A stretch of 64,000 nt of DNA from Patescibacteria group bacterium (GCA_022710685.1 JAKLGM010000002.1:1701-65700), one strand, 5' to 3'; counted from the stretch's first letter, positions 9,870 through 36,975 are shown. The notes: generated by a model not told the origin, from the letters alone. Translations and numbers: made by a program.

Positions 9870-9887
9870 AGATATTATTTAGATTTT

Positions 9888-10385: not shown

Positions 10386-10500
10386 ATTTTTGGGGTTAAA
10401 GCGGCAGGGCCGTTATTCCATTTTATCAGAATAGATAGGGCTAAGCAATATTGACAAGATAGCGCTTTTTTTAATTCAGCACTTGGGTTATAATATACTT

Positions 10501-10767
10501 ATGTTAGACAAATATCAGCAAATCCTTAGGGAAAAAGGTGAATTATACTTACGGCTCAAGGTTCATCCCGGAGCCAAGGAAACGGCTGTCCGAGCGCTAA
10601 TGGCGGATGAGACTATCAAGGTAGACCTGAAGGCGGCGCCGGAAAATGGTCGGGCTAACGAAGCCTTGGTCGCTTGCCTCGCGGCGGAATTTGAGGTAAA
10701 AAGAGAGCAGGTTAAGATTCTAAGCGGCGCGGCTGAACGCCAGAAGCTAATAAAGATCACCATTTAG
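10501..10767 (+). CDS. DUF167 (YggU-like) protein
   Basis: LRLKVHPGAKETAV ... KVDLKAAPENGRANEALV ... KILSGAAERQKLIKI is the typical DUF167 pattern. I prefer the ATG at 10501 over the TTG at 10483. Confidence 0.75.
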   Translation: MLDKYQQILREKGELYLRLKVHPGAKETAVRALMADETIKVDLKAAPENGRANEALVACLAAEFEVKREQVKILSGAAERQKLIKITI

Positions 10768-10772
10768 ACTTT

Positions 10773-12673: not shown

Positions 12674-12674
12674 T

Positions 12675-13454
12675 ATGGATATTTCTATCATCATCGTCAA
12701 TTACAAGAGTCGGGAAAAGACGGCTAAATGCCTGGAGTCTCTTTTTGCTTCGGATTTTTCCGGTTTGCAGCATGAGATTATCGTGGTTGATAATGCTTCG
12801 GGTGACGATCTGAAGGTTTTCCAAATAAAACATCCGGAGCTGAAGATCATTTATAGCCAGAATAATCTGGGCATGGGCGGCGGTAATAATCTAGGCCTGA
12901 AACAAGCTCGGGGTGAATTTATCTTGATATTAAATCCCGACACCGAAGTTTATCCCGATGCTATTAAGATTTTGCATAGCTATTTGGTAAATCATCCCGA
13001 TGTCTATATTGCCGGCCCGAAATTATTGAACCCGGATAAAACTTTGCAGTTGTCTTGTTCTCAATTCCCTAAAATTTATACCCCGATTCTGCGCCGGACT
13101 TTCTTGGGTGATTATTTTAAGAAGAGCCGTGATAGCTTTATGATGACCGACTTTGATCATGAAGAGATCCGTGAGGTTGATTGGCTGATGGGCTCTTGCT
13201 TGATGATTCGGGCGCATGAGTGGGAGGGTTTTGACGAGCGTTTCTTCATGTATTTTGAAGATATTGACGTCTGCCGCCGTGCCTGGCGCTTCGAGAAGAA
13301 GGTTATCTATAATCCGCAGGCTGTTGTCATCCATGATCATGCGCGGGAGAGCGCCAAAAATCCTTGGTATATTGCTCCGTTTTCTGACAAGCTGACGCGG
13401 GAGCATATCAAGTCGTGGATCAAGTATTTTTGGAAATGGAAAATTAGAAAATAA
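12675..13454 (+). CDS. Family 2 glycosyltransferase
   Basis: The ATG at 12675 gives MDISIIIVNYKS. VVDNASGD, LNPDT and YFEDIDVC are GT2 motifs. Confidence 0.85.
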   Translation: MDISIIIVNYKSREKTAKCLESLFASDFSGLQHEIIVVDNASGDDLKVFQIKHPELKIIYSQNNLGMGGGNNLGLKQARGEFILILNPDTEVYPDAIKILHSYLVNHPDVYIAGPKLLNPDKTLQLSCSQFPKIYTPILRRTFLGDYFKKSRDSFMMTDFDHEEIREVDWLMGSCLMIRAHEWEGFDERFFMYFEDIDVCRRAWRFEKKVIYNPQAVVIHDHARESAKNPWYIAPFSDKLTREHIKSWIKYFWKWKIRK

Positions 13455-23118: not shown

Positions 23119-23119
23119 C

Positions 23120-24376
23120 ATGATTAAGTTTAGAATCTATACCCTTGGTTGCAAGGTCAACCAATATGATTCCGGCCGCTTAGAGCGCTTATTGGCTCAG
23201 AGCGGTTTTATGGTTGGGGCCAAGAAGGTTGATTTGGCTATCATTAATACTTGCGCCGTTACCAAGACGGCCATTGTCAAAGACCGGCGGATGATTAATC
23301 TGGCGCGGAAAGAGAATCCAGGCGCCAGGATCGTCGTTATTGGTTGTTGGCCCAAGGCCTACGAACTGTCTGAAGATGTTGATTTAATCGGGGCAGAGAA
23401 AACCCCGGAATTGACCGCCAAGAAGATCAAGGGATTGTATGGGCCGGGCAAAAAAGGAGTCTACAATCACTCGGCTTCGTTATTATCAGCTAACTCTGAT
23501 CGCTCCCGCTATTTTATCAAAGTCCAGGATGGCTGCAATCAATTCTGTTCCTATTGCATCATCCCCTATACCCGCGGCCGCCTGCACAGCCGGCCGCAAT
23601 CTCAGATTATCGCTGAGGTCAAAGCCGCTGTCGCTTCTGGCTATCAAGAAGTCGTCTTGTCTGGAATCCATTTAGGATTGTATGGCCAGGAAAAAGCGGG
23701 AAACAAGACTAACTTAGTGGTTTTAATGAAGAAAGTTTTGGCCATCAGGGGCTTGGGCCGTTTGCGTCTGAGCTCGATTGAGATTACGGAAGTGACTGAT
23801 GAGTTGATAGGATTGATGGTGCAGAATAAAAAAGTTTGTCAGCATCTTCATATTTCGCTGCAATCCGGTTCTGACAAGATTCTTTCCCTCATGAACCGCC
23901 CTTATGATTCTAAATATTTTTTATCGCGGGTGAAAAAATTACGCCAAGCCTTGCCGTTCGTAGCTATTAGCACTGACGTTATTGTCGGTTTCCCGGGCGA
24001 GACTGACAAAGATTTTTCCGCTACCTATAGTTTTTGCCGCGAGGTAGGGTTCAGTAAGATTCATGTTTTTTCTTTTTCGGCCCATGAAAAAACCCCGGCT
24101 GCCCAGATGTCGGGCGTAGTAGCATCTGAGAAGATTAAAGAGCGGTCGCAGAAATTACGTTCTCTGTCGGCTGAATTGGAAACAAAGTATCAGGCTGAGA
24201 TCAAGGATTATTTTTCCGGCCAAGAGTTAGCGGTGGTGGTTGAAGGGGAAAAAAATGGACGCCTCAAGGGCAAGACCGAGTTTTATTTTGATATCTATTT
24301 TTCTAGCAAGCAGATAATCTCAGCTAGTCGGAAGAAACCCAAATTAGGAGATCTGGTCCGGATTATCTTGCTTTAA
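23120..24376 (+). CDS. mtaB: Radical-SAM methylthiotransferase, MtaB-like (MiaB/RimO family)
   Basis: The N-terminal UPF0004 domain has YTLGCKVNQYDS. The radical SAM domain has CNQFCSYCIIPYTRG. There is a C-terminal TRAM-like region. It is 418 aa with no MiaB-type N-terminal extension. Confidence 0.8.
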   Translation: MIKFRIYTLGCKVNQYDSGRLERLLAQSGFMVGAKKVDLAIINTCAVTKTAIVKDRRMINLARKENPGARIVVIGCWPKAYELSEDVDLIGAEKTPELTAKKIKGLYGPGKKGVYNHSASLLSANSDRSRYFIKVQDGCNQFCSYCIIPYTRGRLHSRPQSQIIAEVKAAVASGYQEVVLSGIHLGLYGQEKAGNKTNLVVLMKKVLAIRGLGRLRLSSIEITEVTDELIGLMVQNKKVCQHLHISLQSGSDKILSLMNRPYDSKYFLSRVKKLRQALPFVAISTDVIVGFPGETDKDFSATYSFCREVGFSKIHVFSFSAHEKTPAAQMSGVVASEKIKERSQKLRSLSAELETKYQAEIKDYFSGQELAVVVEGEKNGRLKGKTEFYFDIYFSSKQIISASRKKPKLGDLVRIILL

Positions 24377-24515
24377 TAATATTGGTTTGACTAAAACGTC
24401 GTTTCTAAAGGCATTTTCCGATTTTTTACGTTTAGTATTGACAAAATTAGTATTTTTTGTTATTTCTTAGGTATATATTCACCTTAACAACCAACCAAGG
24501 ACAAAATCTAAAATC

Positions 24516-25220
24516 ATGAAATCATTGAAGTCACTATCGACCAAAGAGCTCGTGCTGAAGCTTAAGAAGCTTACGGCGCCGCTCGACAATGATGGAAAGA
24601 TATCCAAGGCGATTGATTTCAGTTTGTCCCTACATGCCAAGCAGAAAGACCGACAAGCCGATGGTCCCTACATCAACCATGTGTTGCGTGTGACCATTAG
24701 GAGTATCCTTCTGGGCCTAAGAGAACCCGAAGGAATTATTGCCGCTCTTATGCATGATTCAATTGAGGATCAATTGCAGGGATTAGCTAAAGCTTCATCT
24801 AAGTCAACAGTTGGCGCCGGCGATCCGGAAAGAATTGCCGCCCATGCTATTGTCAGTCTCTTTGGAGAAAGGGTTTTGGAGTTAGTCGGCCATCTTACCA
24901 TTCCGGGGTGGCAATATGCCCTGGATCCTAATGGAAAGAATCGTTGTTATGTAGAACACGTGGAAAAGCTTTTTAACATCCACCGTTCTGTCATAATAAT
25001 CAAATTAGCCGACTTCCTGGATAATGCTTGTAGCCTGTTGGATCTGCCCACGCCTGATTTGCAAAAGCGTGGCGCCAGTAAATACCAACCGGTTTATAGC
25101 TTGTTTATAATAAAAATCCAAACTGGACTGCTGCCAATAGAGAATGCTCCCGAAACTTTAGCTGAATTAAAAAACGGCCTCGATGATGCCACGAAAATTC
25201 TAACCACTATCATCGACTGA
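24516..25220 (+). CDS. HD-domain protein, RelA/SpoT-type (p)ppGpp hydrolase-like
   Basis: YINHVLRV ... AALMHDSIED is the HD motif pattern of the SpoT/Mesh1 hydrolase domain. There is no synthetase domain. Confidence 0.65.
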   Translation: MKSLKSLSTKELVLKLKKLTAPLDNDGKISKAIDFSLSLHAKQKDRQADGPYINHVLRVTIRSILLGLREPEGIIAALMHDSIEDQLQGLAKASSKSTVGAGDPERIAAHAIVSLFGERVLELVGHLTIPGWQYALDPNGKNRCYVEHVEKLFNIHRSVIIIKLADFLDNACSLLDLPTPDLQKRGASKYQPVYSLFIIKIQTGLLPIENAPETLAELKNGLDDATKILTTIID

Positions 25221-25244
25221 AAAACTTGGATATCTGCCATCTTT

Positions 25245-25273
25245 AAGGAGCGACCAGAAAATCGCTCCTTTTA
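25245..25273 (+). terminator. Intrinsic terminator after the HD-domain gene
   Basis: aggagcga-ccagaaaa-tcgctcct followed by ttt. Confidence 0.6.
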
Positions 25274-25339
25274 CTTTGCTCTGGACAAATATCATCTATT
25301 GCCTTAAGATAATTCTCAAGCACCTTAAAAAATTGAGCC

Positions 25340-25714
25340 ATGGCAAAACAGAATTCTACAGACTCAGACCGGAAGAATAAAGGCAAAAAGGGCAAGGATG
25401 ATGCTCTGCGAGAACGAAAATCCAAAAATTTAGCTCCGACCGACCATCACATTGTTCCTTCCAGTCGCATGCATGAACCGGAATACCAGGAGTATATTGG
25501 CAAGAGCAACCTAACCATCGTGCCGGATTATCCGCATCACGACTACCATCATCTTTTTTTCAATTTAACCCCGCCCGAAGTCCTAGCTAAGCTGGTGACT
25601 GATTTCTGGGGCGGCCAGACTTTTTGGCTCCAAAAGTATTTAGAAAATCCCGAACATTTTTTGGCTACCATGCGCGAAGCCGAAAAAGGCCAGTTCAAAA
25701 AGCACCCTCGTTGA
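25340..25714 (+). CDS. Hypothetical His-rich basic protein
   Basis: 124-aa ORF with a Lys-rich N-terminus and DHHIVPSSR ... HHDYHHLF. A candidate promoter is tggaca-17-taagat at 25282-25310. I am not confident of any family. Confidence 0.5.
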   Translation: MAKQNSTDSDRKNKGKKGKDDALRERKSKNLAPTDHHIVPSSRMHEPEYQEYIGKSNLTIVPDYPHHDYHHLFFNLTPPEVLAKLVTDFWGGQTFWLQKYLENPEHFLATMREAEKGQFKKHPR

Positions 25715-25732
25715 GGTGCTTTTTTATTTGAT

Positions 25733-25762
25733 TAAAAAAGCCGTAACTTGTTAGTTACGGCT
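25733..25762 (-). terminator. Intrinsic terminator downstream of CDS 25769-26788
   Basis: agccgtaact-tgtt-agttacggct with a T run on the minus strand. Confidence 0.75.
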
Positions 25763-25768
25763 CCTGTT

Positions 25769-26788
25769 TTAGTAGCGGACAATTAGATATCCGTTGAGAG
25801 TTTTATAGAGCAGATCATAGCGCAGTTCGACGGTTCCTTGCCAGTCATTAAATTTCCATGATTTATAGAGTTCGAATGATGGCGCGAGGCGAAGATCAGT
25901 TTGATATTCGCTGTTTATCCCGACGGCAACGCGTAAGAGTTCATCTCCAATCTTTTTCCCCATCATGATTTCATAGTTTTGGACACCGTTTGTGCGGCGG
26001 CCGTCAACTTTCAGGGAATATTCGCCTTTGGTGCAAATCGGAGAGAAATGTTTGTAGTAGAATACTGGCACTACCATGTAGCTGGTGCCTTCGACGTATG
26101 AATCCTGACAGAAAAATTTCTGGTTGATTTCTCCAAAGCCGCTTTGGGAGCGGAACCAGAAGTTGCCAGTTTCAGGCTGGTAGTTGATGAAGGTGAAATT
26201 TCCAAAGCGCTTGAGGTTTTTAGTTCCCACAAATCCCCAATACTGGCGATCCTGTTTACCTACGGCGATAAAAGCGTGTTTGGGGTGATAGGCTAGCCAG
26301 CCATAAGTAGCATCTTGTTTCGTCATTTTTTTTCCCAGCATCGGATGGTAGGACAGGGCGTAGAATTCAGTAGTGAAATTGCGGTAAGATAATCTGGTGC
26401 CGGCGAAATCCCAGGGTTTACTGGCGGGACTGACAATTCGGCCTAATTCTACCGTAGCGCTGAATTTTCCCCATTTCTTGGAAGCCCAGGTATCAAAAGC
26501 AAATTGGTCTTCCTCATTGCCATCACCTGATTTAAGTATCACGCCGCCCCAGCTGCTAGTTGAATCCGAAATTATCTTAGGCATTATGACGCCCAAGACA
26601 TCGCGGCCGTTGGCTTTGTAGTCATACTTGAAACTGATGGTCGGGGTGCTGATTTCAATCCTTTGAGTCAGGACTTGAGAACTGAGGGTGTCGACTTTAA
26701 AGGAGTTTTCCAGATTGACGGATTGTCCCCAAAGATAACTTTGGGTCAGAAAACAGATAGCGATAATCATTGCAATATTTTTGTTCAT
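25769..26788 (-). CDS. Secreted beta-rich protein, outer-membrane beta-barrel-like
   Basis: Signal peptide MNKNIAMIIAICFLTQSYLWGQS. It has many alternating hydrophobic/aromatic strands and ends in ...GYLIVRY, a C-terminal aromatic like an OMP beta-signal. Confidence 0.55.
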   Translation of the reverse strand: MNKNIAMIIAICFLTQSYLWGQSVNLENSFKVDTLSSQVLTQRIEISTPTISFKYDYKANGRDVLGVIMPKIISDSTSSWGGVILKSGDGNEEDQFAFDTWASKKWGKFSATVELGRIVSPASKPWDFAGTRLSYRNFTTEFYALSYHPMLGKKMTKQDATYGWLAYHPKHAFIAVGKQDRQYWGFVGTKNLKRFGNFTFINYQPETGNFWFRSQSGFGEINQKFFCQDSYVEGTSYMVVPVFYYKHFSPICTKGEYSLKVDGRRTNGVQNYEIMMGKKIGDELLRVAVGINSEYQTDLRLAPSFELYKSWKFNDWQGTVELRYDLLYKTLNGYLIVRY

Positions 26789-26863
26789 TTTAATTTCCTC
26801 CTAACTTAATTAATAATTGTTTGATGCGACCGTCGCTTTAGCGCCAATCGTTTTAGGCAATTA

Positions 26864-28009
26864 CTAATAAGTCAGGGGAACCGGATCAGGATTTTTTTTG
26901 AATCCTGAATGTTTCTCTGGCGCTGGAGGCCAAATTACCTTCCAGACTAGGAATTCCGGTTTGATAAAGTGATCAAAAAATACTATCGCCGGACTCGCCG
27001 CTTGGTCGTCGTGAGGCTCTAATTGCTGCCCGTTGATTCCGGGAGGAGCTTTGACCTCCAAGTGATATCCGATAGTTCCGTGGTTTTGACAATAGCTGGT
27101 TTCAGCCCCCCAAGTTTTGGGAGCTAACAAGAGCAGCGTCGTTATTGCCATCACTGGCAACAAAGCTTGCTGGCGCCGGAAGCCACGGTTATCAAGATAC
27201 TGGCGGTAATCGCTCACCTTCAGGTTGCTGGCGGCGAAACGTTTGATGTCAGCCATTTCATCGTCGGAAATCATTGAGAAGATATCGGTTTGCCGACGTT
27301 TTAGTTCAATCTTCATCGCCCACATTCTGGTGCCGAAGCGCCAGGATTTATGCCATACCCGGATAATAGTTACGGGGTAGAGCAATAGGCAGATCAAGAA
27401 GCTTAGGGGGTTGTTAATGCGAATTTTTTCTTTTTCTTGATACCACCAGATCCACAGGAGAAAAAATGCCAGTGGAAAATTCTTTAAGTAGAATGTCCCT
27501 AGCCAGAATATGATGCTGAGCAATAAGTCAGCCCAGAAGCCAGGGCGGTTAACCTTGGCATTAAATTCATCTCTTCTTTTTTGGCTATCAGGGTCAATAA
27601 GCAATTCGCATTTTTTTTGAGCAACAGTCAGTCGCTCCTGGAATTTTTGGTACTCTTCCTCGGAATCTTGCTGCCGGTGGCGGCAAACATTCTCATGGAA
27701 TACAGCCAGGAGTTCGTTGATGGAATTATTGACCATAATTACAACACTACGGTCAAAGTCATTGTTTTGTTGCTTTATTTTGATTTCCGTCAGGTCGGCA
27801 AAATAAAGCTCGGGGGTGTAATTTTCGCCCCACATCTGGGCTTGGCGTATTTTTCCATTTAAATATTCTTGGTCTCCTTTCCCGCCATCCGCCTTAAAGG
27901 GCGGTTGGGGGCCTGATTCAATATTATTGAATAAAGAGAAGAAACCGATATTATAAAGGAAAAAGCCGGCCAGGATGATTTTTGCCATAATTAGCGCGAC
28001 CTTTTTCAT
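26864..28009 (-). CDS. Hypothetical multi-pass membrane protein
   Basis: 381-aa ORF with an N-terminal TM helix and a central cluster of TM helices (FWADLLLSIIFWLGTFYL, LAFFLLWIWWY, LSFLICLLLYPVTII). Confidence 0.55.
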   Translation of the reverse strand: MKKVALIMAKIILAGFFLYNIGFFSLFNNIESGPQPPFKADGGKGDQEYLNGKIRQAQMWGENYTPELYFADLTEIKIKQQNNDFDRSVVIMVNNSINELLAVFHENVCRHRQQDSEEEYQKFQERLTVAQKKCELLIDPDSQKRRDEFNAKVNRPGFWADLLLSIIFWLGTFYLKNFPLAFFLLWIWWYQEKEKIRINNPLSFLICLLLYPVTIIRVWHKSWRFGTRMWAMKIELKRRQTDIFSMISDDEMADIKRFAASNLKVSDYRQYLDNRGFRRQQALLPVMAITTLLLLAPKTWGAETSYCQNHGTIGYHLEVKAPPGINGQQLEPHDDQAASPAIVFFDHFIKPEFLVWKVIWPPAPEKHSGFKKNPDPVPLTY

Positions 28010-28218
28010 GATTAGTCAGATTTGTGGTTTATATTAATTTGTCAAAGAAAATTGCCATTTTGGGCAACATATCATAATATCATTTTTTACAACTTTTGTC
28101 AATATCATACTATGGCTATTTTCCAGTAAATTGACACTTTTTTACGGTTTTGTTAGCATGATGAGATTAGTCAAAATCAATCTGTTCTTAATAATAACTA
28201 ACAAAAAAAGGAGGTCTA

Positions 28219-28944
28219 ATGAAAGAAATCATGGCTATCGCTGAAAAGAATTTTTTGGCACTTAAAAACAACCCTTATCCGGGACGAGGGATTATCGTCG
28301 GCGCCGATGCCGCTGGAAAAAATTTAGTCTTGGGATACTGGATTATGGGCCGAAGCCCCAATAGCCGTAATCGCATTTTTGTTTTGAGACCGGACGAATC
28401 TTTGGAGACTGCTCCGGCTGATCCCAGCAAGGTAGAGGATTCCAGTTTGATTATTTACCGCGCAATGGCTCAAAACCGTTCAATGGGTGTTTATGTGGTC
28501 AGTAATGGCCATCAGACTGATGATGCCTTGGAATGGGGATCGGATAATCTGCCAGCTGATTGGCAATATGAACCGGATGCGCCAAATTTTACTCCCCGAA
28601 TTACTGCCGGAATCAGCTTAATGGAAGGGGATAGTGCGGTGGCCTTGGTGAGCATCTTGAAGAAATCTCCTTTCAGCGAAGCTTGCGACCGTTATAACTA
28701 TCATCTGGCTTTGGCTCCGGGCTTGGGCTATTGCATCACCACTTATTCTGGCGACGGCAAACCTTTGCCGCCATTCCAGGGCGATCCTTATCTCGTGCCC
28801 CTGGCTGGAGACATCAAAGAAATGGCTCAGACAATCTGGTCCGCCCTCAACGAAGACAACCGGGTATCGCTGGCGCTAAAATTTATCAACACTGAAAACA
28901 ATAGAGTTACTGTGGAGATAATCAACAAATACTGCGCTATTTGA
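28219..28944 (+). CDS. purO: IMP cyclohydrolase, archaeal PurO family
   Basis: YPGRGIIVGADAAGKNLVLGYWIMGRSPNSRNR, VVSNGHQTD and FTPRITAG parallel the M. jannaschii PurO blocks YLGRILAVGRNSNG..YRVSSRSFPNR, VVSNGSHTD and NTPRIAA. A strong AGGAGG RBS lies at 28210. Confidence 0.72.
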   Translation: MKEIMAIAEKNFLALKNNPYPGRGIIVGADAAGKNLVLGYWIMGRSPNSRNRIFVLRPDESLETAPADPSKVEDSSLIIYRAMAQNRSMGVYVVSNGHQTDDALEWGSDNLPADWQYEPDAPNFTPRITAGISLMEGDSAVALVSILKKSPFSEACDRYNYHLALAPGLGYCITTYSGDGKPLPPFQGDPYLVPLAGDIKEMAQTIWSALNEDNRVSLALKFINTENNRVTVEIINKYCAI

Positions 28945-29006
28945 CCCCCCAAAAGCTTCAATTAAAAGAAAACCCCGCCGAGTAATCTATGGGGTTTTTA
29001 TATTTG

Positions 29007-29036
29007 TTGTAATATTTTTTTAAGCGGGTGTATAAT
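29007..29036 (+). promoter_or_regulatory. Candidate promoter of the first tandem pilin gene
   Basis: ttgtaa, 18-nt spacer, tataat (29031-29036). The flanks resemble the promoter at 30438-30466, but there is no G tract. Confidence 0.45.
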
Positions 29037-29074
29037 ATGAATATTATAAAGGTTAGGCTTTAACTTCATTTAAT

Positions 29075-30205
29075 ATGAATTTTCGCAAAAAAGGCTTCAC
29101 TCTCATTGAGTTGTTGGTAGTTATCGCCATTATTGGCGTTTTAGCCACTATTTCTATCATCGCTCTCCAAAATGCTCGGGCTAAATCCCGCGATGCTAAA
29201 AGAGCGGGTGATATGAAACAAGTGCAAACGGCTCTAGAGTTGTTCTTTAATGACAAGAATCGTTATCCGACCGTGGAGGAGTGGACTACTGGCCAGATCT
29301 ATTCCACCTCCTCTGGTTCTACTTCTACCTATATGCAGATTATCCCTAATGCTTCAACCCCAGCCGATGGCCCTTGCACTGATACTCAAAACACTTTTTA
29401 TTACCAACAAACCGAGAATGGTAATTCCTATAATATTTCCTTCTGTTTGGGCAACACTACGGGCACTTTGGATGGTGGCCTAAAATGTTTGACCCCAGCA
29501 GGTATTATGGACACAGATTGTAGCGGCGGAGGCGGCGGGACTCCACCCCCAGCTTTTACTTGCGGCGACCAAGTTAATATTACCACTCTTGCTGGCCATA
29601 CTTGTAATACCGGCGCTCCGGATTATGACACCTGTACCTATGATACAGTTTCAATCGGCACCCAATGTTGGATGCAGGAGAATTTGAATGTTGGCAGCCA
29701 AGTCGCTGGCACCTCCGACCAATTTAATAATTCTACTTTAGAAAAATATTGTTTTGATGATACTTCCACCAATTGCCAAAACGATGGCGCTTTATACCAA
29801 TGGGATGAAACTATGCAGTATTCCGTTGCCGAAGGAGCTCAAGGCATCTGCCCGACTGGTTGGCATATTCCTAGCGATGCTGAACAAAATATACTTGATC
29901 AATATTTGAATGATACCACTTGTGTGGCTAATCGGGTTGGGGCTTGGGATTGTGCTAATGCCGGTACTAAGTTACAAGTCGGCGGCAGTTCTGGTTTCGA
30001 AGGTATATTAGCCGGCAACCGCAATAGTAGCGGGCTTTTTGATTTTCAAGGGATGCTCGGATTTATTTGGTCATCTTCTGCTATTTCACCTTCGGTTCCC
30101 GGCTCAGATGTTTGGTTCCGTAATTTAGAAGCGTTTTCTGAGTTCGTTTATCGTGGCTATAATTATCGGGTCGATGGTTTTTCTGTTCGTTGTCTCAAGG
30201 ATTAA
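29075..30205 (+). CDS. Type IV pilin-like protein with a FISUMP lectin-like head (paralog of the DGR target; not matched to the TR)
   Basis: KKGFTLIELLVVIAIIGVL prepilin motif. FISUMP blocks: SIGTQCWMQENLNVG, GALYQWDE, CPTGWHIPSDAEQ, GFEGILAGNR, IWSSS, FSVRCLKD. Confidence 0.85.
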   Translation: MNFRKKGFTLIELLVVIAIIGVLATISIIALQNARAKSRDAKRAGDMKQVQTALELFFNDKNRYPTVEEWTTGQIYSTSSGSTSTYMQIIPNASTPADGPCTDTQNTFYYQQTENGNSYNISFCLGNTTGTLDGGLKCLTPAGIMDTDCSGGGGGTPPPAFTCGDQVNITTLAGHTCNTGAPDYDTCTYDTVSIGTQCWMQENLNVGSQVAGTSDQFNNSTLEKYCFDDTSTNCQNDGALYQWDETMQYSVAEGAQGICPTGWHIPSDAEQNILDQYLNDTTCVANRVGAWDCANAGTKLQVGGSSGFEGILAGNRNSSGLFDFQGMLGFIWSSSAISPSVPGSDVWFRNLEAFSEFVYRGYNYRVDGFSVRCLKD

Positions 30206-30231
30206 ATAACTTTTACCACTGATTTGCAAAA

Positions 30232-30261
30232 ACACCGCAGATTGTTCTGCGGTGTTTTTTG
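30232..30261 (+). terminator. Intrinsic terminator after the first tandem pilin gene
   Basis: acaccgcag-attgtt-ctgcggtgt followed by tttttt. Confidence 0.8.
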
Positions 30262-30437
30262 TTAGTAGTCCTCCGAGAGGAGATATCTAAACATTTAAGC
30301 GAAATTATTGAGGAAATTAAGATCTGGGCGGTGTTTTTGACACTGATAAATTAATATTACTTTTTATAACTAGAAAAGTCAATTAACTTAAAGTCTAAAT
30401 TTTTTGTTTTAAAACCCAGTTCAAATCTGCCCCAATA

Positions 30438-30466
30438 TTGCCGGGGGGGGGGGGATATGGTATAAT
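30438..30466 (+). promoter_or_regulatory. Promoter of the DGR target gene, with a G12 homopolymer in the spacer
   Basis: ttgccg (30438-30443), 17-nt spacer, tataat (30461-30466), with TGg extended -10 at 30458-30460. The spacer is dominated by the G run at 30443-30454. Confidence 0.65.
30443..30454. repeat. Homopolymeric G12 tract
   Basis: The sequence ccgggggggggggggat contains 12 consecutive G. Confidence 0.95.
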
Positions 30467-30505
30467 ACGAGTATTAATAAAAGTTAAGTATTAATCTTGT
30501 TTTAT

Positions 30506-31609
30506 ATGAAATCTAAAAAAGCCTTCACCCTCATCGAGCTCTTAGTAGTAATAGCCATCATTGGTATCTTAGCAACTATTTCCGTTTTAGCTCTCAATAA
30601 TGCTAGGGCTAAATCCCGTGACGCCAAAAGAGTGGGGAATATGAAACAAGTCCAAACAGCCCTAGAGCTATTCTTTAACGACAAACAAAGATATCCCACC
30701 GCTGAAGAATGGAACACTGGAAAAATATACTCCACTACCACCAATTCCACCTCGACCTATATGCAAATAATACCAGTTGCTCCCACCCCTAATGATGGTA
30801 ATTGTACCACCGATCAAAACGCTATTAACTATATCCCTACCTCAGACGGAGCATCCTATTCTATCTCTTTCTGTCTGGGAGGTACTACCGGAACCCTAGC
30901 TCCCGGACCAAAATGTTTGACTCCTAGTGGAATTGTGGATATGGATTGTAGCGCTGGTAGTCCACCAGCTTTTGCTTGTGGTATTAGCCAAGTTACAATT
31001 TCTTCTATTGCCGGCCACACTTGTAATACTGGCGCCCCAGACTATGACACTTGTACCTATGACACTGTTGATATTAACGGTCAATGCTGGATGAAGCAAA
31101 ATATGAATATCGGTACTTATGTCACTGGTGCCACTACCCAAACCAATGACTCTAATTTACAAAAATATTGTTACGGCGATAATACCGGTAATTGTCTAAC
31201 TGACGGCGGTCTCTATCAATGGGATGAAGCTATGCAATATTCCGTCACTGAATTAGCTCAAGGCGTTTGCCCCGATGGTTGGCATATCCCCACTGACGCT
31301 GAACAAAATACGCTTGACCAATCATTAAATGATACTACTTGTAATGCTAATAGAATCGGGGATTGGGATTGTGCTAACGCCGGCACTAAATTACAAACTG
31401 GAGGTACTTCCGGATTTGAGGGTCTCTTAGCCGGCTACCGCGATCCCGGTGGGTTGTTCTACCTTCAGGGGACGTACGCGCTCTTCTGGTCGTCATCGAT
31501 TAGCGGGTCTGATGCTTGGGATCGGTACTTGCTCACTGGCCTCGCGACCGTTTTCCGCAATCATAGTGACCGAGCCCACGGCTTTTCTGTGCGTTGTCTT
31601 CAGGACTAA
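30506..31609 (+). CDS. DGR target (variable) protein: type IV pilin-like N-terminus plus a FISUMP/C-type-lectin-like head carrying the VR
   Basis: The ATG at 30506 gives MKSKKAFTLIELLVVIAIIG. FISUMP blocks: INGQCWMKQNMNIG, GGLYQWDEAM, CPDGWHIPTDAEQ, GFEGLLAGYR, FWSSS, FSVRCLQD. The last 177 nt are the VR. Confidence 0.9.
   Translation: MKSKKAFTLIELLVVIAIIGILATISVLALNNARAKSRDAKRVGNMKQVQTALELFFNDKQRYPTAEEWNTGKIYSTTTNSTSTYMQIIPVAPTPNDGNCTTDQNAINYIPTSDGASYSISFCLGGTTGTLAPGPKCLTPSGIVDMDCSAGSPPAFACGISQVTISSIAGHTCNTGAPDYDTCTYDTVDINGQCWMKQNMNIGTYVTGATTQTNDSNLQKYCYGDNTGNCLTDGGLYQWDEAMQYSVTELAQGVCPDGWHIPTDAEQNTLDQSLNDTTCNANRIGDWDCANAGTKLQTGGTSGFEGLLAGYRDPGGLFYLQGTYALFWSSSISGSDAWDRYLLTGLATVFRNHSDRAHGFSVRCLQD
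31430..31606 (+). repeat. DGR variable region (VR)
   Basis: Gap-free 177-nt alignment to 32191-32367. By hand count there are 36 mismatches, 25 of them at TR adenines. The 3' 29 nt are identical. Confidence 0.88.
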
Positions 31610-31612
31610 TTC

Positions 31613-31639
31613 GACTATTTTGACTATTTTGACTATTTT
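31613..31639 (+). repeat. 3 x 9-bp tandem repeat (gactatttt)
   Basis: Three perfect tandem copies begin 4 nt after the target-gene stop codon. Confidence 0.9.
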
Positions 31640-31640
31640 T

Positions 31641-31662
31641 CCGCCTCGTGTCAGCGAGGCGG
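31641..31662 (+). promoter_or_regulatory. GC-rich hairpin downstream of the VR (candidate DGR target-recognition hairpin and/or terminator)
   Basis: ccgcctcg-tgtcag-cgaggcgg: an 8-bp GC-rich stem with a 6-nt loop, 35 nt after the VR end. Confidence 0.55.
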
Positions 31663-31680
31663 AATTAATTAATTTTCCTT

Positions 31681-32025
31681 ATGGCTACTTATGATAATCT
31701 GCCGGTGTATAAAGCCAGTTATGATTTACTGCTGGAAATATTCATTTTCAGCAAGAATATGGATAAGGAATATAAATATACCATTGGGGATGATTTGAAA
31801 AAAGAAACCACGGCCATGATTACCAATATCTACCGTGCGAATTGCAGTCAGAATAAAAAAGAGTTAATCCAAGGTGGTCGGAAAAATTTAGAAGTCATCA
31901 GATTATATTTACGCTTAATCAAAGATTTGAAACAGATATCTCTATTAAAATTCGTAAAGATTAATGAAATTATTGAATCAATTTCTAAACAATTGAATTT
32001 TTGGCAAAATGCCATGAAATCATAA
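31681..32025 (+). CDS. avd: Accessory variability determinant (Avd)-like four-helix-bundle protein (TIGR02436 / 23S rRNA-IVS protein family)
   Basis: 114 aa. LPVYKASYDLLLEIFIFSKNM.KEYKYTIGDDLKKETTAMITNIYRAN fits the family pattern. It sits between the VR and the TR. Confidence 0.8.
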   Translation: MATYDNLPVYKASYDLLLEIFIFSKNMDKEYKYTIGDDLKKETTAMITNIYRANCSQNKKELIQGGRKNLEVIRLYLRLIKDLKQISLLKFVKINEIIESISKQLNFWQNAMKS

Positions 32026-32190
32026 TGGGCCAGAGTCGTCATCGGTTACGGCCATGGCGAGTGCGCCTCACTAGTCCAATAATCCACTAAATTTTTTTAA
32101 ATTTAGTAATTGACGGAGCAACCTGTCATTTTGCTGATTTTTTAATAAAATATCAAATCAGCCGAAGAGTTTAGCGATTATTATAAAAGA

Positions 32191-32367
32191 GCCGGCAACC
32201 GCAATACCAATGGGTCGTTCAACAATCAGGGAACGAACGCGAACTTCTGGTCATCTACCATTAGTGGACCGGACGCCTGGAATCGGAACTTGAACACCGG
32301 CTATGCGACCGTTAACCGCAATCATAATGACCAAGCCAACGGCTTTTCTGTGCGTTGTCTTCAGGAC
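32191..32367 (+). repeat. DGR template repeat (TR)
   Basis: Non-coding copy of the VR. Read in the VR frame, it has 14 AAY codons among 59 (AGNRNTNGSFNNQGTNANFW...NRNLNTGYATVNRNHNDQAN). It lies 55 nt upstream of the RT start. Confidence 0.88.
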
Positions 32368-32422
32368 TGGTCAAAAGGAGCCATATAACAATGGCTTCTT
32401 TTATTTTACTAAAATATTTTTT

Positions 32423-33634
32423 ATGTCCGATAAACTTCTTGTTGACCTCTTTCAAGCCTATTACGACGCTCGGCGTTACAAGAGAAATACGATGAGCGCT
32501 TTAAATTTTGAAATTAATTTAGAGCATAATATATTTGAATTATATAAAGAGATAAAAAATGGTACTTATCAAATTAGTCCCAGTCTGGCCTTTATAATTT
32601 TCGATCCGGTTCAGCGGGAAATTATCGCTTCTCCCTTTCGGAATCGAGTCGTTCATCATCTCGTTTTTAATTATATTAACCCTATTCTGGAAAAGCTCTT
32701 TATTTCAGACAGTTATAGCTGTCGCCAGGGCAAGGATATCAGTTACGGAGTTAAGCGAGTCGCCCATTTTGTCCGGTCTAGTTCACAAAATTATCGGACC
32801 GATAATTATATTCTTAAACTAGATATTTCCGGCTATTTTATGAGTATTAATCAAAAGATATTATATGATAAGGTAGAGAATTATTTATTAAGACATAACA
32901 CTAATTATCCTTTCGATTTAAAATTAATTTTAGCTCTATTAAAGAAAATTGTTTTTCACGATTATATCAAGGATTGCGTTATTAGAGGCGGGCACACTAA
33001 TTGGCAAAAATTACCCCGCAATAAAAGCTTATTTTTTACCCCTCCGGGTTTTGGTTTGCCGATAGGTAATTTAACCTCGCAATTATTTAGCAATGTTTAC
33101 CTTAATGATTTTGATCATTATATTAAACGGAATTTGAAGTTTAAATATTATGGCCGTTATGTTGATGATTTAATAATCATTGACGGCAGTAAAGAGAGCC
33201 TCCAAATAGCTATGGCCAAAATTGCGGAATATTTATCAGCAAATCTGAATCTAAAAATTCACCCCAGAAAAATATATTTACAGCCCTACACTAAGGACGT
33301 TAATTTTTTGGGCGGAATTATTAAGCCTTATAGAGTTTATGTCCGTCATCGGACTAAAGCTAGTTTTTATCGCTCAGTGGCTAAGTCCAATAATATTTTA
33401 AAAAATATAGATGTAGAAAAGAAAGCGCTAAGAAAAATTTTATCCAGTTTTAATTCCTATTTAGGATCATTGGGGCAATATAAAACCTATAATTTACGGC
33501 GTAAAATATTGGATAACAAACTATCTCCGGCCTTTTCGCGTTATTATAGATTGGGAAGTGGCAAGTTTAGATATAAGAAAATTATTTTGAAGAGATATTT
33601 TAAACTTATCCCCAGCTCCACCAAGCACGATTAA
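32423..33634 (+). CDS. DGR-type reverse transcriptase
   Basis: The ATG at 32423 gives MSDKLLVDLFQAYYDARRYKR. Motifs include GLPIGNLTSQLFSNVYLNDFD (DGR-specific [ILV]GxxxSQ), YGRYVDDLIII (YxDD), and FLGGIIKP. The track start at 32303 is an out-of-frame readthrough of the TR. Confidence 0.9.
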   Translation: MSDKLLVDLFQAYYDARRYKRNTMSALNFEINLEHNIFELYKEIKNGTYQISPSLAFIIFDPVQREIIASPFRNRVVHHLVFNYINPILEKLFISDSYSCRQGKDISYGVKRVAHFVRSSSQNYRTDNYILKLDISGYFMSINQKILYDKVENYLLRHNTNYPFDLKLILALLKKIVFHDYIKDCVIRGGHTNWQKLPRNKSLFFTPPGFGLPIGNLTSQLFSNVYLNDFDHYIKRNLKFKYYGRYVDDLIIIDGSKESLQIAMAKIAEYLSANLNLKIHPRKIYLQPYTKDVNFLGGIIKPYRVYVRHRTKASFYRSVAKSNNILKNIDVEKKALRKILSSFNSYLGSLGQYKTYNLRRKILDNKLSPAFSRYYRLGSGKFRYKKIILKRYFKLIPSSTKHD

Positions 33635-34030
33635 ATTATCTCGTCAAAATCTCAAAAATCACCCCCAAAATCAGCCCTTAACCTATCCCCGAATTTATGC
33701 TATGATACATTTAGACTTAATCAATAAAATTATATAATCTCGGAACCCATTGTTGAACGGATGTCGCTCGCATGAAACGCAAAATAAAAATAAAACTCAT
33801 AAAATAATATCCCCTGTAAATTAGCAAAGTCTTTCTTTGCCAATTGAAACTAATTAACCAGCATTTGTCCGTGCTCGGTTTTTTTTGTTTTGGCAAAGAC
33901 TATTAATTTCGTCGTCGCCTGTTTAGTTAGCGAAACAGGTCAATGATTCCTTTAATGTAAACAAGCGTATTAGTTTGTTTTAGCCTATTGGTGGCACTTG
34001 CCCCGTCGCTAGTGGCTAGTTCTGTTCTTT

Positions 34031-34140
34031 AATCTCTCATTTTTGACCGTCCCCCCAAGCATTGTTTTTTATTTTTTTTTCGGCGAGGCTTGTCCGCTCG
34101 CCGAAAAAATAAAAACAAGCTGGGGGCGGTAAATGAGATT
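34031..34140. repeat. Long imperfect palindrome centred on a GC hairpin (bidirectional terminator and/or replication origin)
   Basis: aatctc(tc)attt..accg.cccccaagc.ttgtttttt.atttttttttcggcgag-gcttgtccg-ctcgccgaaaaaataaaaacaagctgggggcggtaaatgagatt. The core stem is cggcgag/ctcgccg. Confidence 0.7.
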
Positions 34141-34217
34141 TTAAATAAAAGTAGTGTTTGTTCGCCGTGTGCCTCTATTAGACTTGACTATAGGCACACT
34201 TAACGCCGTTATAACTT

Positions 34218-35006
34218 ATGGAAATTAAACCACGAGTTTATCGGCAGAAGCTGATAGAGTCGGGTGATTATGTAGAAATATATGATTATGAGAACTTCAT
34301 TAAAATTAATCAAAAGAGAAGACATGGAAGAATTAAAAAGGAAAAAATTAAGCAACCACATGAAGATGATAACAGTGAATTGAGTAAAGTATTAAAAAGT
34401 GAATTTTCCTATAGGCGAAGTCGGTCAAATATTGTTAGACTGGTAAATTCTAACCCCGATTTAAGAGTATTTATCACGCTAACCTTTGATAGCCATAAAT
34501 TCGGGGATAAGCCGTTTACTGATTTTAAAGAATGTAATTTGATATTTTCTAATTTCATTAAACGACTAAAACGGAAATATCCCGATTTAAAATATCTGGC
34601 CGTGCCCGAATTTCAAAGCGACTATTATCACCGCACCAATATCCGAAAAGAATTTGGCGGTAATATTCATTATCACTTATTATCTAATTTGCCGTTTATT
34701 GAGAACACCGCTCTCGAGAAAATCTGGGGCTACGGATTCATTAAAATCAATAATATCCGACAGGTGTCTGCTGTCGGTCCGTATGTCGCTAAATACATCG
34801 GCAAAGAATTATTTGACGGTCGCTTAAATGGAAAGAAAAAACTATTTTATTCGAGGACTCTTAATCGCTCTAAAATTATTATTACCTACTCAAAAATAAA
34901 AGAATATCTTAATAACTTAAAATCACCTCTCAAGCTTTTGCACGAGACAACTTACAAGTCCGAATATCTCGGCAGAGCTCGCTATCGGCTCTATAAAAAT
35001 AGTTAG
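34218..35006 (+). CDS. Rolling-circle replication initiator, HUH superfamily, Y2 type (phiX174 gpA-like motifs)
   Basis: Motif I is VFITLTF, motif II is IHYHLLSN (HUH), and motif III is GPYVAKYIGK. The YxxxY pair compares with phiX174 A protein YVAKYVNK. Confidence 0.65.
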   Translation: MEIKPRVYRQKLIESGDYVEIYDYENFIKINQKRRHGRIKKEKIKQPHEDDNSELSKVLKSEFSYRRSRSNIVRLVNSNPDLRVFITLTFDSHKFGDKPFTDFKECNLIFSNFIKRLKRKYPDLKYLAVPEFQSDYYHRTNIRKEFGGNIHYHLLSNLPFIENTALEKIWGYGFIKINNIRQVSAVGPYVAKYIGKELFDGRLNGKKKLFYSRTLNRSKIIITYSKIKEYLNNLKSPLKLLHETTYKSEYLGRARYRLYKNS

Positions 35007-35053
35007 CAATATCGTCTTTGATTCTTTTAGGTAAAACATAAGCCCTCTAACCA

Positions 35054-35215
35054 ATGATTACTATCGAGGCCCTTAAAAAATTAATAGTAAGTCGTGGTCG
35101 ACAGTATTCCGATGACGAATTGGAGACAGTTAGACGCGACTTATACCAACTTGCTCATCTCTCGTTTAAGTATTATCTCAATCAACAAAATATACTAACA
35201 AAATCAATAAAATAA
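35054..35215 (+). CDS. Small hypothetical ORF (53 aa) between Rep and the recombinase
   Basis: ATG at 35054 giving MITIEALKKLIVSRGRQYSDDELETVRRDLYQLAHLSFKYYLNQQNILTKSIK. It is below the track threshold, helical-looking, and sits where an excisionase/RDF might lie. The function is pure speculation. Confidence 0.25.
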   Translation: MITIEALKKLIVSRGRQYSDDELETVRRDLYQLAHLSFKYYLNQQNILTKSIK

Positions 35216-35330
35216 ATGAAAAATATTGTAAAAATTAAAATATATGTTATTATCCTTAATGGACACAATTAAATCAAAGTATATCAACCATTCTCAAATC
35301 ACAATGACGGCAGATGAGTCGTTTTGATAT

Positions 35331-35396
35331 AAAGAGAGCAGTGGCTGTTTCAGTTATACTTTGTATAATTGTGTCCAACAGTTCACTGCTCTCTTT
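35331..35396. repeat. 13-bp perfect inverted repeat flanking a TATAAT box upstream of the recombinase gene
   Basis: aaagagagcagtg (35331-35343) pairs with cactgctctcttt (35384-35396). tataat lies at 35364-35369 inside the loop. A second inverted repeat pairs ggacacaatt (35261-35270) with aattgtgtcc (35367-35376). Confidence 0.7.
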
Positions 35397-35417
35397 TTAT
35401 TATTAACTTTTAACCCT

Positions 35418-36941
35418 ATGCAAAAAGGAATAATCTATTACCGAGTTTCAACCGAAGACCAAGCTCAAACTGGCGTTAGCTTGGAACAGCAGAAAAACGC
35501 CTGTCTTGATTATGCTCAAAAAAATGATATTGAAATATTAAAATTATTTCACGATGACGGAGTGTCCGCTAAAACCACTAAAAGGGCGGGGCTCCAAGAG
35601 TTGCTGGCGTATTGTAAAAAGAATCATAAAGAAGTTGATTGTCTGATAGTTTATAAAATTGATAGGTTGTCGAGAAATGTTAAAGACTACGCCACGCTAT
35701 TAATGGCACTAGGCGAATTTAACATTAAATTTATTTCCACCACTGAGACCGTCAATGAAACATCAAGCGGAAAACTTATCGGTACGATTATGGCCTCGTT
35801 CGCTCAATTTGATAATGATGTTAGGAGCGAAAGAGTGTCGGTCTGTATGCTCGAAAAGGCTAAGCAGGGAATCTGGTGCTTCAAAGCCCCATTCGGTTAT
35901 CTAAACGCTCGAGACGGGCAAAATAGAGCCATTATAACCGTGGATAAGGAGCGTATGCCAGTTATTAAAATGGCCTTTGAAAAGTTTGCCACGGGATTAT
36001 ATAAAATGGAGGAAATTAGAAAAATGATGATTAAAGCTGGTTTTAAAACATGGCGAGATAAAGAGCTAAATATTCAAAGTTTATCCCGTTTATTATCGGA
36101 AAAGTTCTATATCGGCATTATGACGATTAAAGGCCAAGAATATCAAGGCACGCATGAATTATTTATTGATGAAAATACATATTACAAATGCCAAAAATTA
36201 ATCCGCACTTCTAAGCGAGGTGATAATATTGCTTTTAAACGCACTAACGAAATGTTTCCGTTAAGAAATTTTATTTTATGTCCTCATTGTCATCGCCCTT
36301 TTACCGCCTACTTATCTAAAAATCGCCAAGGCAAATATTATCCGTATTATAAATGCTATAACAAGGACTGTCACAATTTTAAATCTGTCGCCAAAGATAG
36401 GCTGGAAAATCAGTTCAGCAATTATATCAAAGAAATATCGCCTGATCCTGATTTTGCTAAAGCCTATCAAAAAATTGTGGTTGAGGAATGGGAAAAGGGA
36501 CTGCAAAATTATAAGGGTAGTATTGTTAATCTCAAGAATGAATTAGATAAACTAGAAATAGAGAAGTCTAAATTAATTGAAATGAAGAAAAAGGATTTGC
36601 TTGACGATGAGGACTTTAAAGAAGAAATGTATAAAGTAAAGATTAAAATAGCCGAAAAGCAGTCTATCCCAGCCGAGAGTATAGCTGATAATTTTGATGT
36701 TAAAAAAGAATCCAAAAAAGTTTTTGATATTATCCCCGACCTCAATAAATTCTATAATGGTCTCGGCTATTACGACAAGCTGAAATTACAGGGTTTGATT
36801 TTTCCTGAAAAGGTCTATTTTGATTTTTCCGAAAGTCGAACCCCTAAATTGTCGCTAATATTACAAACCAAAAGAGAGCTGGCAACTGCCAGCTCCCCGA
36901 AAGTAGCCTCTAGGGGAATCGAACCCCTGTTACATGGTTGA
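35418..36941 (+). CDS. Large serine recombinase (resolvase domain + recombinase domain + zinc ribbon + coiled coil)
   Basis: The ATG at 35418 gives MQKGIIYYRVSTEDQ, with the catalytic Ser in YRVST. Other features are VYKIDRLSRN, the zinc ribbon CPHCHRPF...YYKCYNKDC, and a Lys/Glu-rich coiled coil. The last 38 nt overlap tRNA-Glu. Confidence 0.88.
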   Translation: MQKGIIYYRVSTEDQAQTGVSLEQQKNACLDYAQKNDIEILKLFHDDGVSAKTTKRAGLQELLAYCKKNHKEVDCLIVYKIDRLSRNVKDYATLLMALGEFNIKFISTTETVNETSSGKLIGTIMASFAQFDNDVRSERVSVCMLEKAKQGIWCFKAPFGYLNARDGQNRAIITVDKERMPVIKMAFEKFATGLYKMEEIRKMMIKAGFKTWRDKELNIQSLSRLLSEKFYIGIMTIKGQEYQGTHELFIDENTYYKCQKLIRTSKRGDNIAFKRTNEMFPLRNFILCPHCHRPFTAYLSKNRQGKYYPYYKCYNKDCHNFKSVAKDRLENQFSNYIKEISPDPDFAKAYQKIVVEEWEKGLQNYKGSIVNLKNELDKLEIEKSKLIEMKKKDLLDDEDFKEEMYKVKIKIAEKQSIPAESIADNFDVKKESKKVFDIIPDLNKFYNGLGYYDKLKLQGLIFPEKVYFDFSESRTPKLSLILQTKRELATASSPKVASRGIEPLLHG

Positions 36942-36975
36942 GAACCATGTGTCCTAACCGTTAGACGAAGAGGCC
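36904..36975 (-). tRNA. tRNA-Glu (anticodon CTC)
   Basis: The reverse complement folds as GGCCTCT-TC-GTCT..GGAC-A-CATGG-TTCTCAA-CCATG-TAAC-AGGGG-TTCGATT-CCCCT-AGAGGCT-A. The cloverleaf is fine except for a G1-U72 terminal wobble. Confidence 0.85.

Follow-up and report, generated by a model that had tools for sequence, protein, structure and literature searches.

A probable integrative mobile element carrying a diversity-generating retroelement and its target at a tRNA-Glu gene in Patescibacteria

Genes at the tRNA-Glu locus

The stretch of DNA analysed here (the window; 64,000 nucleotides of the Patescibacteria group genome GCA_022710685.1, JAKLGM010000002.1:1701-65700, with all coordinates counted from its first letter) contains a diversity-generating retroelement (DGR), a rolling-circle replication initiator (Rep) and a large serine recombinase (LSR), the last of which reads into a convergent tRNA-Glu gene. 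The segment 30269-36906 is very probably a discrete integrative mobile element of 6,638 bp, with a core, a left end and a cargo bay, and with the DGR inside it. Its order is left end, the DGR target gene tgt2, the accessory gene avd, the template repeat (TR), the reverse transcriptase (RT) gene, a conserved intergenic region, Rep, the small gene orf53 and the LSR. A preliminary description had placed a mobile element at 33635-36975; the mobile element stands, its extent does not, and the start given there nearly coincides with the edge of the conserved Rep-LSR core (33655). The source assembly (G000) comprises 0.89 Mb, is 89% complete and holds the element in single copy; G001, G002, G003, G004 and G005 are genomes of the same genus.

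The stretch from avd to the recombinase had been judged by eye to be AT-rich, and computation agrees. Its GC content (31610-36902) is 35.0%, against a mean of 43.1% (standard deviation 2.0; z = -4.0) for genome-wide 5.3-kb windows, only 1.2% of which are as low. The AT-rich part begins near 31650 and the element further left, at 30269; the first gene, tgt2, has a host-like GC content (45%).

The target gene tgt2 (30497-31609, plus strand), 97.5% identical to its copy in G002, encodes a type IV pilin-like N-terminus and a lectin-type domain (Pfam N_methyl and Fib_succ_major). It has its own promoter within the cargo bay and carries the variable repeat (VR), recognised by VR/TR comparison, at its 3' end (31429-31607). 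The accessory gene avd follows (31681-32025, plus strand; PF22296 bAvd, 45.2 bits; phrog_3206), then a plus-strand spacer RNA (32029-32188) with a match to the Rfam RT-7 RNA (RF03028; 50.3 bits, E = 1.2e-9) that lies below the gathering score of 116.8. The TR (32190-32368, plus strand) differs from the VR at 36 positions, 25 of which are TR adenines, and the RT gene (32423-33634, plus strand; RVT_1, 54 bits; phrog_1423, 1e-92) completes the set that marks a DGR: RT, Avd, an adenine-biased TR/VR pair, and a lectin-fold target whose 3' end holds the VR. We infer that the system acts on tgt2 in cis; the 3' end of tgt1, a gene outside the element, has no match to the TR.

About 25 paralogs of this pilin-like N_methyl and Fib_succ_major family occur in the 0.89-Mb genome (on contigs C1, C4, C8, C9, C21, C23, C26, C34 and C36, and at window 930-2120), many with N-terminal halves that are 70-80% identical. 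Because of these paralogs and its host-like GC content, tgt2 was probably captured from a host genome. A second RT (G000:C3:20518-21252), 34% identical to that of the window, may mark another DGR elsewhere in the genome.

Downstream of the RT, the reported 583-nt non-coding stretch (33635-34217) and the 262-aa open reading frame (ORF) with three rolling-circle motifs (34218-35006, plus strand) are both present. The ORF contains FITLTF, HYHLL (the HUH motif) and YVAKYIGK, all read directly, and it falls within an HUH family, scoring 57.4 bits against PF23343 REP_ORF2-G2P (cut-off 27.8) and matching the PHROG replication-initiator families phrog_3584/3419. The earlier label of phiX174-type Rep holds for the two-tyrosine motif and for a putative nick motif, and fails for the family. 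Rep residues 185-197 (AVGPYVAKYIGKE) are identical to phiX174 gpA 339-351 (AVGFYVAKYVNKK) at 9 of 13 positions, both catalytic tyrosines included (BLASTP), but there is no detectable homology to gpA outside this motif: Pfam Phage_GPA scores 12.9 bits, below its cut-off of 31.4, and the match is confined to residues 180-197. A PDB sequence search with the Rep returned no match. These comparisons assign the Rep, a two-tyrosine HUH protein, to family PF23343 and not to the gpA family.

Similarity to a second, DGR-less element in another genome of the order (G024) begins at 33655, and the intergenic region from there to 34217 (plus strand) can be aligned across the element family described below. 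It holds a promoter-like site (33678-33706), a long palindrome (34031-34140) and, upstream of Rep, the motif ATTAGACTTGACTATAGGCACAC (34177-34199); the structure of the intergenic hairpin is kept in distant members, but its sequence differs. ACTTGAYYAT lies upstream of Rep at 34 of 38 distinct Rep loci, Zot-encoding ones included, down to 33% Rep identity. The conserved ACTTGA...CTATAGxCAC motif resembles the nick site of phiX174 gpA, CAACTTG/ATA...CTATAGACCAC (compared with the upstream motif as CAACTTG/ATATTAATAACACTATAGACCAC), which offers a lead to the Rep nick site, not proof of it. We regard 33655-34217 as a candidate replication origin and Rep control region. A 59-aa ORF (33717-33896, minus strand) lies antisense in the conserved Rep leader, within a region also conserved in G024; it could be a genuine short gene, mark an antisense RNA, or reflect nothing more than DNA conservation.

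The 53-aa ORF (orf53; 35054-35215, plus strand) matches no family and is conserved: all examined elements of this clade have one or two copies of it between Rep and LSR; homologs were not detected in Zot-type or tyrosine-integrase relatives. This constant position and restricted distribution fit a partner of the LSR, such as a directionality factor, and orf53 is a candidate recombination directionality factor or regulator. The LSR (35361-36941, plus strand, in its integrated form) reads as 526 aa from a TTG at 35361 or as 507 aa from an ATG at 35418. The 507-aa form had been described as a large serine recombinase with a zinc ribbon, an assignment borne out by its Resolvase (PF00239, 123 bits), Recombinase (PF07508, 44 bits) and Zn_ribbon_recom (PF13408, 31.9 bits) domains, its YYRVSTEDQ motif and its match to phrog_95 'integrase' (2e-89).

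The convergent tRNA-Glu(CTC) gene that closes the block, as reported, is the integration target (36903-36975, minus strand; ARAGORN; Rfam tRNA, 64 bits). It lies directly downstream of fmt, 8 nt past the fmt stop codon, and overlaps the 3' end of the LSR gene by 39 nt. A terminator-like hairpin found by terminator scan inside the LSR 3' coding region (36873-36898, minus strand) now follows the 3' end of the tRNA, and it is kept in relatives with changed stem bases. Close LSR homologs in relatives all terminate within a tRNA gene: tRNA-Arg in G024, tRNA-Ala in G005, G006 and G137, and tRNA-Glu in G095, G014 and G120.

Element ends and transfer between species

The five nucleotides AGTAG bound both junctions and are the sole sequence common to attL (core at 30264-30268) and attR (core at 36902-36906), where GTAG forms the last four nucleotides of the ARAGORN-called tRNA-Glu gene, read on the plus strand. 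To the left of the attL core lies chromosomal flank, made up of the tgt1 terminator and a T-run and resembling the empty tRNA-Glu sites of congeners; to its right lies the element. The attL junction joins ...GTGTTTTTTGTTAGTAG to TCCTCCGAGAGG, and the attR junction joins ...CCCCGAAAGTAG to CCTCTAGGGG. So short a common core fits the expectation for a serine integrase, whose junctions lack long direct repeats. A search of the window found no duplicated tRNA-Glu fragment at the second boundary, which also fits a serine integrase, and this boundary was located through relatives instead.

The left end of the element (30269-30354, plus strand) supplies the missing end of the integrase. When 36906 is joined to 30269, as in a circular form, the LSR frame stays open and gains 28 residues, VLREEISKHLSEIIEEIKIWAVFLTLIN, to give 543 aa from the TTG start. 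In the integrated form this native tail is replaced, and the last 11 residues are coded by the antisense strand of the tRNA; the mature tRNA-Glu is left intact. The same exchange recurs regularly in every integrated copy, other species included. G024 has one LSR copy without an adjoining tRNA, and its ORF continues into ...PLREKISKRFNEIIGEIKRWARFL, coded by DNA that matches the window from 30265 onwards, between tgt1 and tgt2. The tail encoded at the left end is homologous to that of this G024 LSR copy 1 and to those at the left ends of the tRNA-Ala elements (VVVKKRISNSLDEIIEEIKYWAEFL). The frame kept open by joining the ends and the homologous tails in relatives place attP inside the 3' end of the LSR gene. 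In the literature searched we found no description of an attP inside a serine integrase gene that changes the C-terminus on integration. The left end also contains a conserved block, GAAATTATTGAGGAAATTAAG, which about 12 Patescibacteria elements have in the corresponding position.

Empty tRNA-Glu sites were found in four congeners (G005, G003, G001 and G004), in G017 and in three further family members. They consist of terminator hairpin, T-run, GTAG and tRNA-Glu with no element, and the left flank in the window looks exactly alike; the congeners with an empty site are also without the DGR there. At this very site G002 has a copy of the element; from 30256 to the tRNA the two sequences are 95-99.4% identical, whereas the flanking genes fmt, def, h95, h265 and h498 are only 68-75% identical. 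The left break in identity (30256) coincides with attL, and this argues strongly that tgt2, the DGR and the rest of the block were transferred horizontally together, as a single unit. As read from these alignments, the DGR and its target are shown to have moved between species with the element. Empty sites, a significantly different composition and a Rep above the threshold of an HUH family uphold the preliminary reading of an integrated element. The mapped junctions and the identity break support its suggestion that the DGR is cargo, and go further in placing the target inside as well.

The same comparisons bear on a narrower explanation, that only the Rep-orf53-LSR core (33655-36906) is mobile and landed by chance beside a resident chromosomal DGR. 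The similarity of the second G024 element, confined to the window from 33655 onward, would suit this explanation, as would the host-like composition and many genomic paralogs of tgt2. However, the left end that codes the LSR tail is upstream of tgt2, not at 33655, and no sequence resembling a tRNA flank occurs at 33655; the identity break with G002 is at 30256; the empty sites of congeners also lack the DGR; and two other element types enclose DGRs within mapped ends. We reject a mobile core on its own as largely refuted and very improbable.

The interval between the tRNA-Thr and tRNA-Glu genes (window 23119-36903) measures 13.8 kb here, 9.8 kb in G002, 4.6 kb in G001, 2.3 kb in G003 and 1.6 kb in G005, and appears to be a region prone to acquiring and losing genes.

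Several results weigh against a mobile carrier of an active DGR. The only other copy at this site, in G002 (L014, G002:C1 9322-10171), is dead. It has lost 3.65 kb internally, corresponding to window 32728-36378: Rep and orf53 are gone entirely and the RT and LSR in part, with RT codon ~112 fused to LSR codon ~342, which inactivates both DGR and integrase. Eleven VR/TR differences fall outside adenines, which leaves recent DGR activity uncertain. A search of metagenome contigs for the attP pattern found only G024-type tandem junctions and no circular or excised form, terminal overlaps were present in none of 11 small Rep-bearing contigs tested, and the native LSR tail was found in a single database protein, of the G024 type. 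Among 51 genomes in the order, a Rep beside a window-like RT occurs only in G000 and G024, with a remnant in G002, and most DGRs of this RT lineage are therefore not on such elements, or lie on contigs too short to tell. Moreover, Rep nicking, the role of orf53 and the function of the LSR tail are matters that we infer. Searches of IMG/VR gave no relatives with the LSR protein as query and a single, unrelated match with the left-end pattern.

Such observations raise the possibility of an immobilised relic, which arrived by integration, no longer excises, and whose DGR is now kept by the host. The failure to find an episomal form in metagenome contigs, in the small contigs or through the native-tail protein, the decay of the G002 copy, the non-adenine differences and an integrated LSR without its conserved tail are all consistent with a relic. 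Against this, none of the six genes in the window is disrupted, a recent transfer is implied by the 95-99% identity to G002, and the exchange of the tail is regular in every integrated copy, other species included. We consider it unlikely that the element is a relic.

A modular family related to filamentous-phage prophages

The core of the element, which comprises the intergenic region from ~33655, Rep, orf53 and LSR, recurs at tRNA-Arg, tRNA-Ala and tRNA-Glu(ttc) genes with other cargo, placed between the conserved left-end block and Rep. The cargo is a 461-aa coiled-coil protein in G024 element 2, ATPase, restriction-like and helix-turn-helix genes in G006, G138, G144 and G147, and unrelated ORFs at locus L057; the elements range from 5 to 11 kb. 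In a survey of 316 genomes of the order, covering 96 genera, Rep homologs occur in 69 genomes and 29 genera.

DGRs lie within two further element types. On contig 4 of G137, an unrelated DGR, made up of two targets, a TR, avd and an RT only 31% identical to that of the window, stands between the left-end block and Rep, followed by Rep, two orf53 copies, LSR and tRNA-Ala. A 7.7-kb element on two ENA contigs (L105/L106), bordered by 21-bp direct repeats of a tRNA-Leu 3' end, has a pilin/Fib_succ_major target, an RT and an avd that are 75% and 72% identical to those of the window, a Rep that is only 45% identical, and a tyrosine integrase. Taken together, these elements indicate one DGR lineage on two backbones and one backbone lineage with two DGRs. 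The L105 and L106 sequences (ENA GROS21) are 97.8% identical over element and left flank to ~11520 and then diverge, with tRNA-Leu, tmRNA and smpB in one right flank and tRNA-Ser and other genes in the other; this reflects either an element-mediated rearrangement or an assembly chimera. An insertion polymorphism separates ENA contigs L109 and L110: an element of ~6.2 kb with a 284-aa Rep and a 559-aa LSR (L109 11496-17700), directly after an inovirus-like prophage with a tyrosine integrase, is absent from L110.

G024 carries a head-to-tail array with three junctions (L011, G024:C1 5050-17260; also L135/L136). It starts with tgtA, a 45-nt remnant of an LSR 3' end and an attP-like junction, continues through the element that bears the DGR, whose LSR is full-length and has the native tail, to a second attP-like junction, and ends with a DGR-less element that finishes in tRNA-Arg(tct). 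An array of this type is repeated in an independent JGI contig of 468 kb.

Some Rep homologs adjoin Zot, and these define the phage kin of the element. Zot/pI prophages in G017, G005, G001 and G008 have PF23343-type Reps that are 39-46% identical, and LSRs that are 28% identical, to those of the window; their Zot/pI genes lie 1-2 kb from Rep, and their LSR runs into a tRNA. The G017 prophage (L120, G017:C1:50000-65000, 3299-12705), one of a set of inovirus-like prophages of about 9.4 kb (also L121, L122, L123 and L125), encodes in order a LexA-like repressor, small ORFs, 595-aa and 137-aa products, Zot/pI (phrog_197; phrog_1675 'protein I of M13'), Rep, a 73-aa ORF and an LSR that enters tRNA-Gln; one G008 copy is near tRNA-Asn. 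G005 and G001 encode a Zot 92% identical to that of G017, a sign that one phage may circulate between genera. The prophages and the window element share, upstream, a long hairpin, GGCGGTAAATGAGATTTTAGAC and TTAACTTGACYATAsGCACAC, and a 60-nt intergenic stretch is ~90% identical to that of the G005 prophage although the Reps are only 41% identical. The presence of PF23343 in these Zot-encoding inovirus-like prophages makes filamentous phages, not Microviridae, the phage relatives of the element.

An intact Microviridae prophage, already discounted in the preliminary description for want of capsid genes, is ruled out by that absence and by the sub-threshold Phage_GPA score. Neither the element nor the G000 assembly (89% complete) yielded Zot or coat genes; the pI/Zot and coat protein genes that mark an inovirus (Tubulavirales) prophage are missing from the element too, and tblastn with the structural proteins of the G017 prophage found no match in roughly 12 elements of this clade examined. 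The core thus has kin in the Rep-LSR-tRNA backbone that inovirus-like prophages with Zot carry within the genus and family. We regard the element as most likely belonging to this prophage backbone lineage, with a DGR in the cargo bay where the prophages hold their virion module.

This kinship raises the possibility, which we hold tentatively, that the element is a filamentous-phage satellite, packaged as single-stranded DNA (ssDNA) by a co-resident Zot-encoding inovirus-like phage and keeping only Rep, an origin and packaging hairpin, and the integrase; such packaging would refine the transfer step and leave the rest of our preferred explanation as it is. RS1 and TLC, satellites of Vibrio cholerae that depend on CTXphi and fs2, are likewise small and integrated, retain a rolling-circle Rep and origin without morphogenesis genes, and occur in tandem arrays, features that our element and its relatives share. 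They differ in that RS1 and TLC use host XerCD at dif and their helper dependence has been demonstrated, whereas the element targets tRNA genes with its own LSR and its helper is hypothetical. The Rep family, long hairpin and ACTTGA motif in common with the Zot prophages of the genus (with the 60-nt stretch nearly identical to that of G005), the absence of morphogenesis genes from all of the roughly 12 clade elements examined, the evident transfer between species and the G024 array with its attP-like internal junctions are consistent with a satellite. Head-to-tail arrays let CTXphi-type prophages make ssDNA without excision. On the other hand, the origin-like motif and hairpin are shared with the Zot prophages of congeners but no Zot gene and no helper were found in G000 (assembly 89% complete), the shared motif could reflect common Rep recognition only, and element sizes vary widely (5-11 kb).

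A bolder form of the satellite explanation, which we treat as doubtful, would make the element a DGR-bearing satellite of Patescibacteria filamentous phages that spreads a self-diversifying pilus adhesin between species, with the exchange of the LSR tail serving as a built-in sensor of integration state. Helper inoviruses would package ssDNA produced after excision, or by origin-to-origin rolling-circle synthesis from G024-like tandem arrays, and the exchange of the 28-residue tail would bias the integrase between integration and excision.

Conjugal transfer offers a different route. Here the element would be an integrative mobilizable element (IME) with the HUH Rep as its relaxase, like the MobT/Rep_trans relaxases of Firmicutes integrative conjugative elements (ICEs) and IMEs. 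A serine integrase, a rolling-circle-type protein and a tRNA site form a known IME layout, and G000 encodes a VirB4/TraC-like type IV secretion ATPase (C23:5251-7200, minus strand; P-loop_TraG, 99.7 bits; AAA_10, 39 bits). VirB4 is present in about 80% of Patescibacteria assemblies, in which type IV secretion system (T4SS) clusters are mostly without known relaxases (PMC12102498). However, the same Rep family and upstream motif occur in prophages with Zot, and there the Rep is expected to serve replication; the element revealed neither a coupling protein nor anything resembling an oriT; and the authors of the T4SS survey favour a non-conjugative role for the system (PMC12102498). An IME is in our view quite unlikely.

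Proposed mechanism and meaning

In our preferred reading, of an integrative element from the prophage backbone lineage with the DGR as cargo, recombination by the LSR would have taken place between attP, within the 3' end of the LSR gene, and attB, at the very 3' tip of tRNA-Glu(CTC). The crossover would lie within AGTAG, so placed that the tRNA stays intact and acquires a new trailer and terminator from the element. Integration, as the reading frame shows, exchanges the conserved 28-residue LSR tail for 11 tRNA-antisense residues. Excision would follow, with orf53 probably acting as the directionality factor, and the Rep would nick the ACTTGA motif upstream of its own gene and replicate the circle by a rolling-circle mode. 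The comparison with G002 shows the DGR travelling with the element, so that each new host would gain a self-diversifying pilin-like adhesin. Packaging by a helper inovirus and mobilisation through a chromosomal T4SS are both candidate transfer routes, and either fits.

Individual features have parallels in known systems. In mycobacteriophage integration-dependent immunity and in the SSV1 integrase, attP lies in coding sequence and integration alters a C-terminus, as we see here. There, however, the integrases are of the tyrosine type, and the protein altered is a repressor or an integrase that is split completely; in our element a serine integrase exchanges its last 28 residues and no more. 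The two-tyrosine motif and the ACTTGA...CTATAGxCAC motif recall phiX174 gpA and its origin; the homology outside the motif and the Microviridae capsid genes that would complete the likeness are missing. Actinomycete-type AICEs such as pSAM2 (PMC2440964) are also small and tRNA-integrated with their own Rep, and they excise and replicate by rolling circle; they differ in having tyrosine integrases and an FtsK-like transfer protein, where the element has a serine integrase. Some Rep homologs of the family give weak RepSA matches, and the window Rep itself gives none.

Inoviruses that integrate by serine recombinases, including those of the Candidate Phyla Radiation (CPR), have been described (Roux et al. 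2019, PMC6813254), in a paper that does not mention retroelements or reverse transcriptase. The element resembles the Zot prophages of its relatives in its PF23343-type Rep, its hairpin and ACTTGA motif, and its Rep-small ORF-LSR-tRNA order with the LSR running into the tRNA. It differs from the serine-recombinase inoviruses in lacking pI/Zot and coat genes, in the divergence of its Rep and LSR given above, and in its DGR cargo. On Bacteroides ICEs, DGRs diversify type V pilus adhesins (bioRxiv 10.1101/2024.11.15.621889). There too the DGR targets a pilus-type adhesin of the bacterium itself, as cargo of an integrase-bearing element that moves between species. The Bacteroides ICEs, however, are large and conjugative, with tyrosine integrases and transfer genes, whereas the element is 6.6 kb long, has an HUH Rep and a serine integrase without transfer genes, resides in Patescibacteria and bears a type IV pilin-like target.

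DGRs on phages and ICEs, serine-recombinase inoviruses and CPR inoviruses are known already. The present combination varies on these known kinds: a compact element with Rep and LSR, inovirus-like in its ancestry, has taken up a DGR together with its target and keeps attP within the gene for its integrase. The literature searched held no description of such a Rep-plus-LSR element with DGR cargo. Patescibacteria DGRs have been classed almost entirely as cellular (Roux et al. 2021, PMC8144416). Because phages are identified through their virion genes in the pipelines of that study, a 6.6-kb element without such genes would count as cellular. Our analysis indicates that at least some of these 'cellular' DGRs, target gene included, ride small Rep-plus-integrase elements that have moved between species. 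A modular family with fixed ends and core and a swappable cargo bay also provides a handle for finding Patescibacteria cargo, from defence-like genes to DGRs, and its compact serine integrases with mapped tRNA att sites are possible tools. For bacteria whose genomes are very small and whose life is spent attached to other cells, the element represents a concrete vehicle by which accelerated evolvability may spread.

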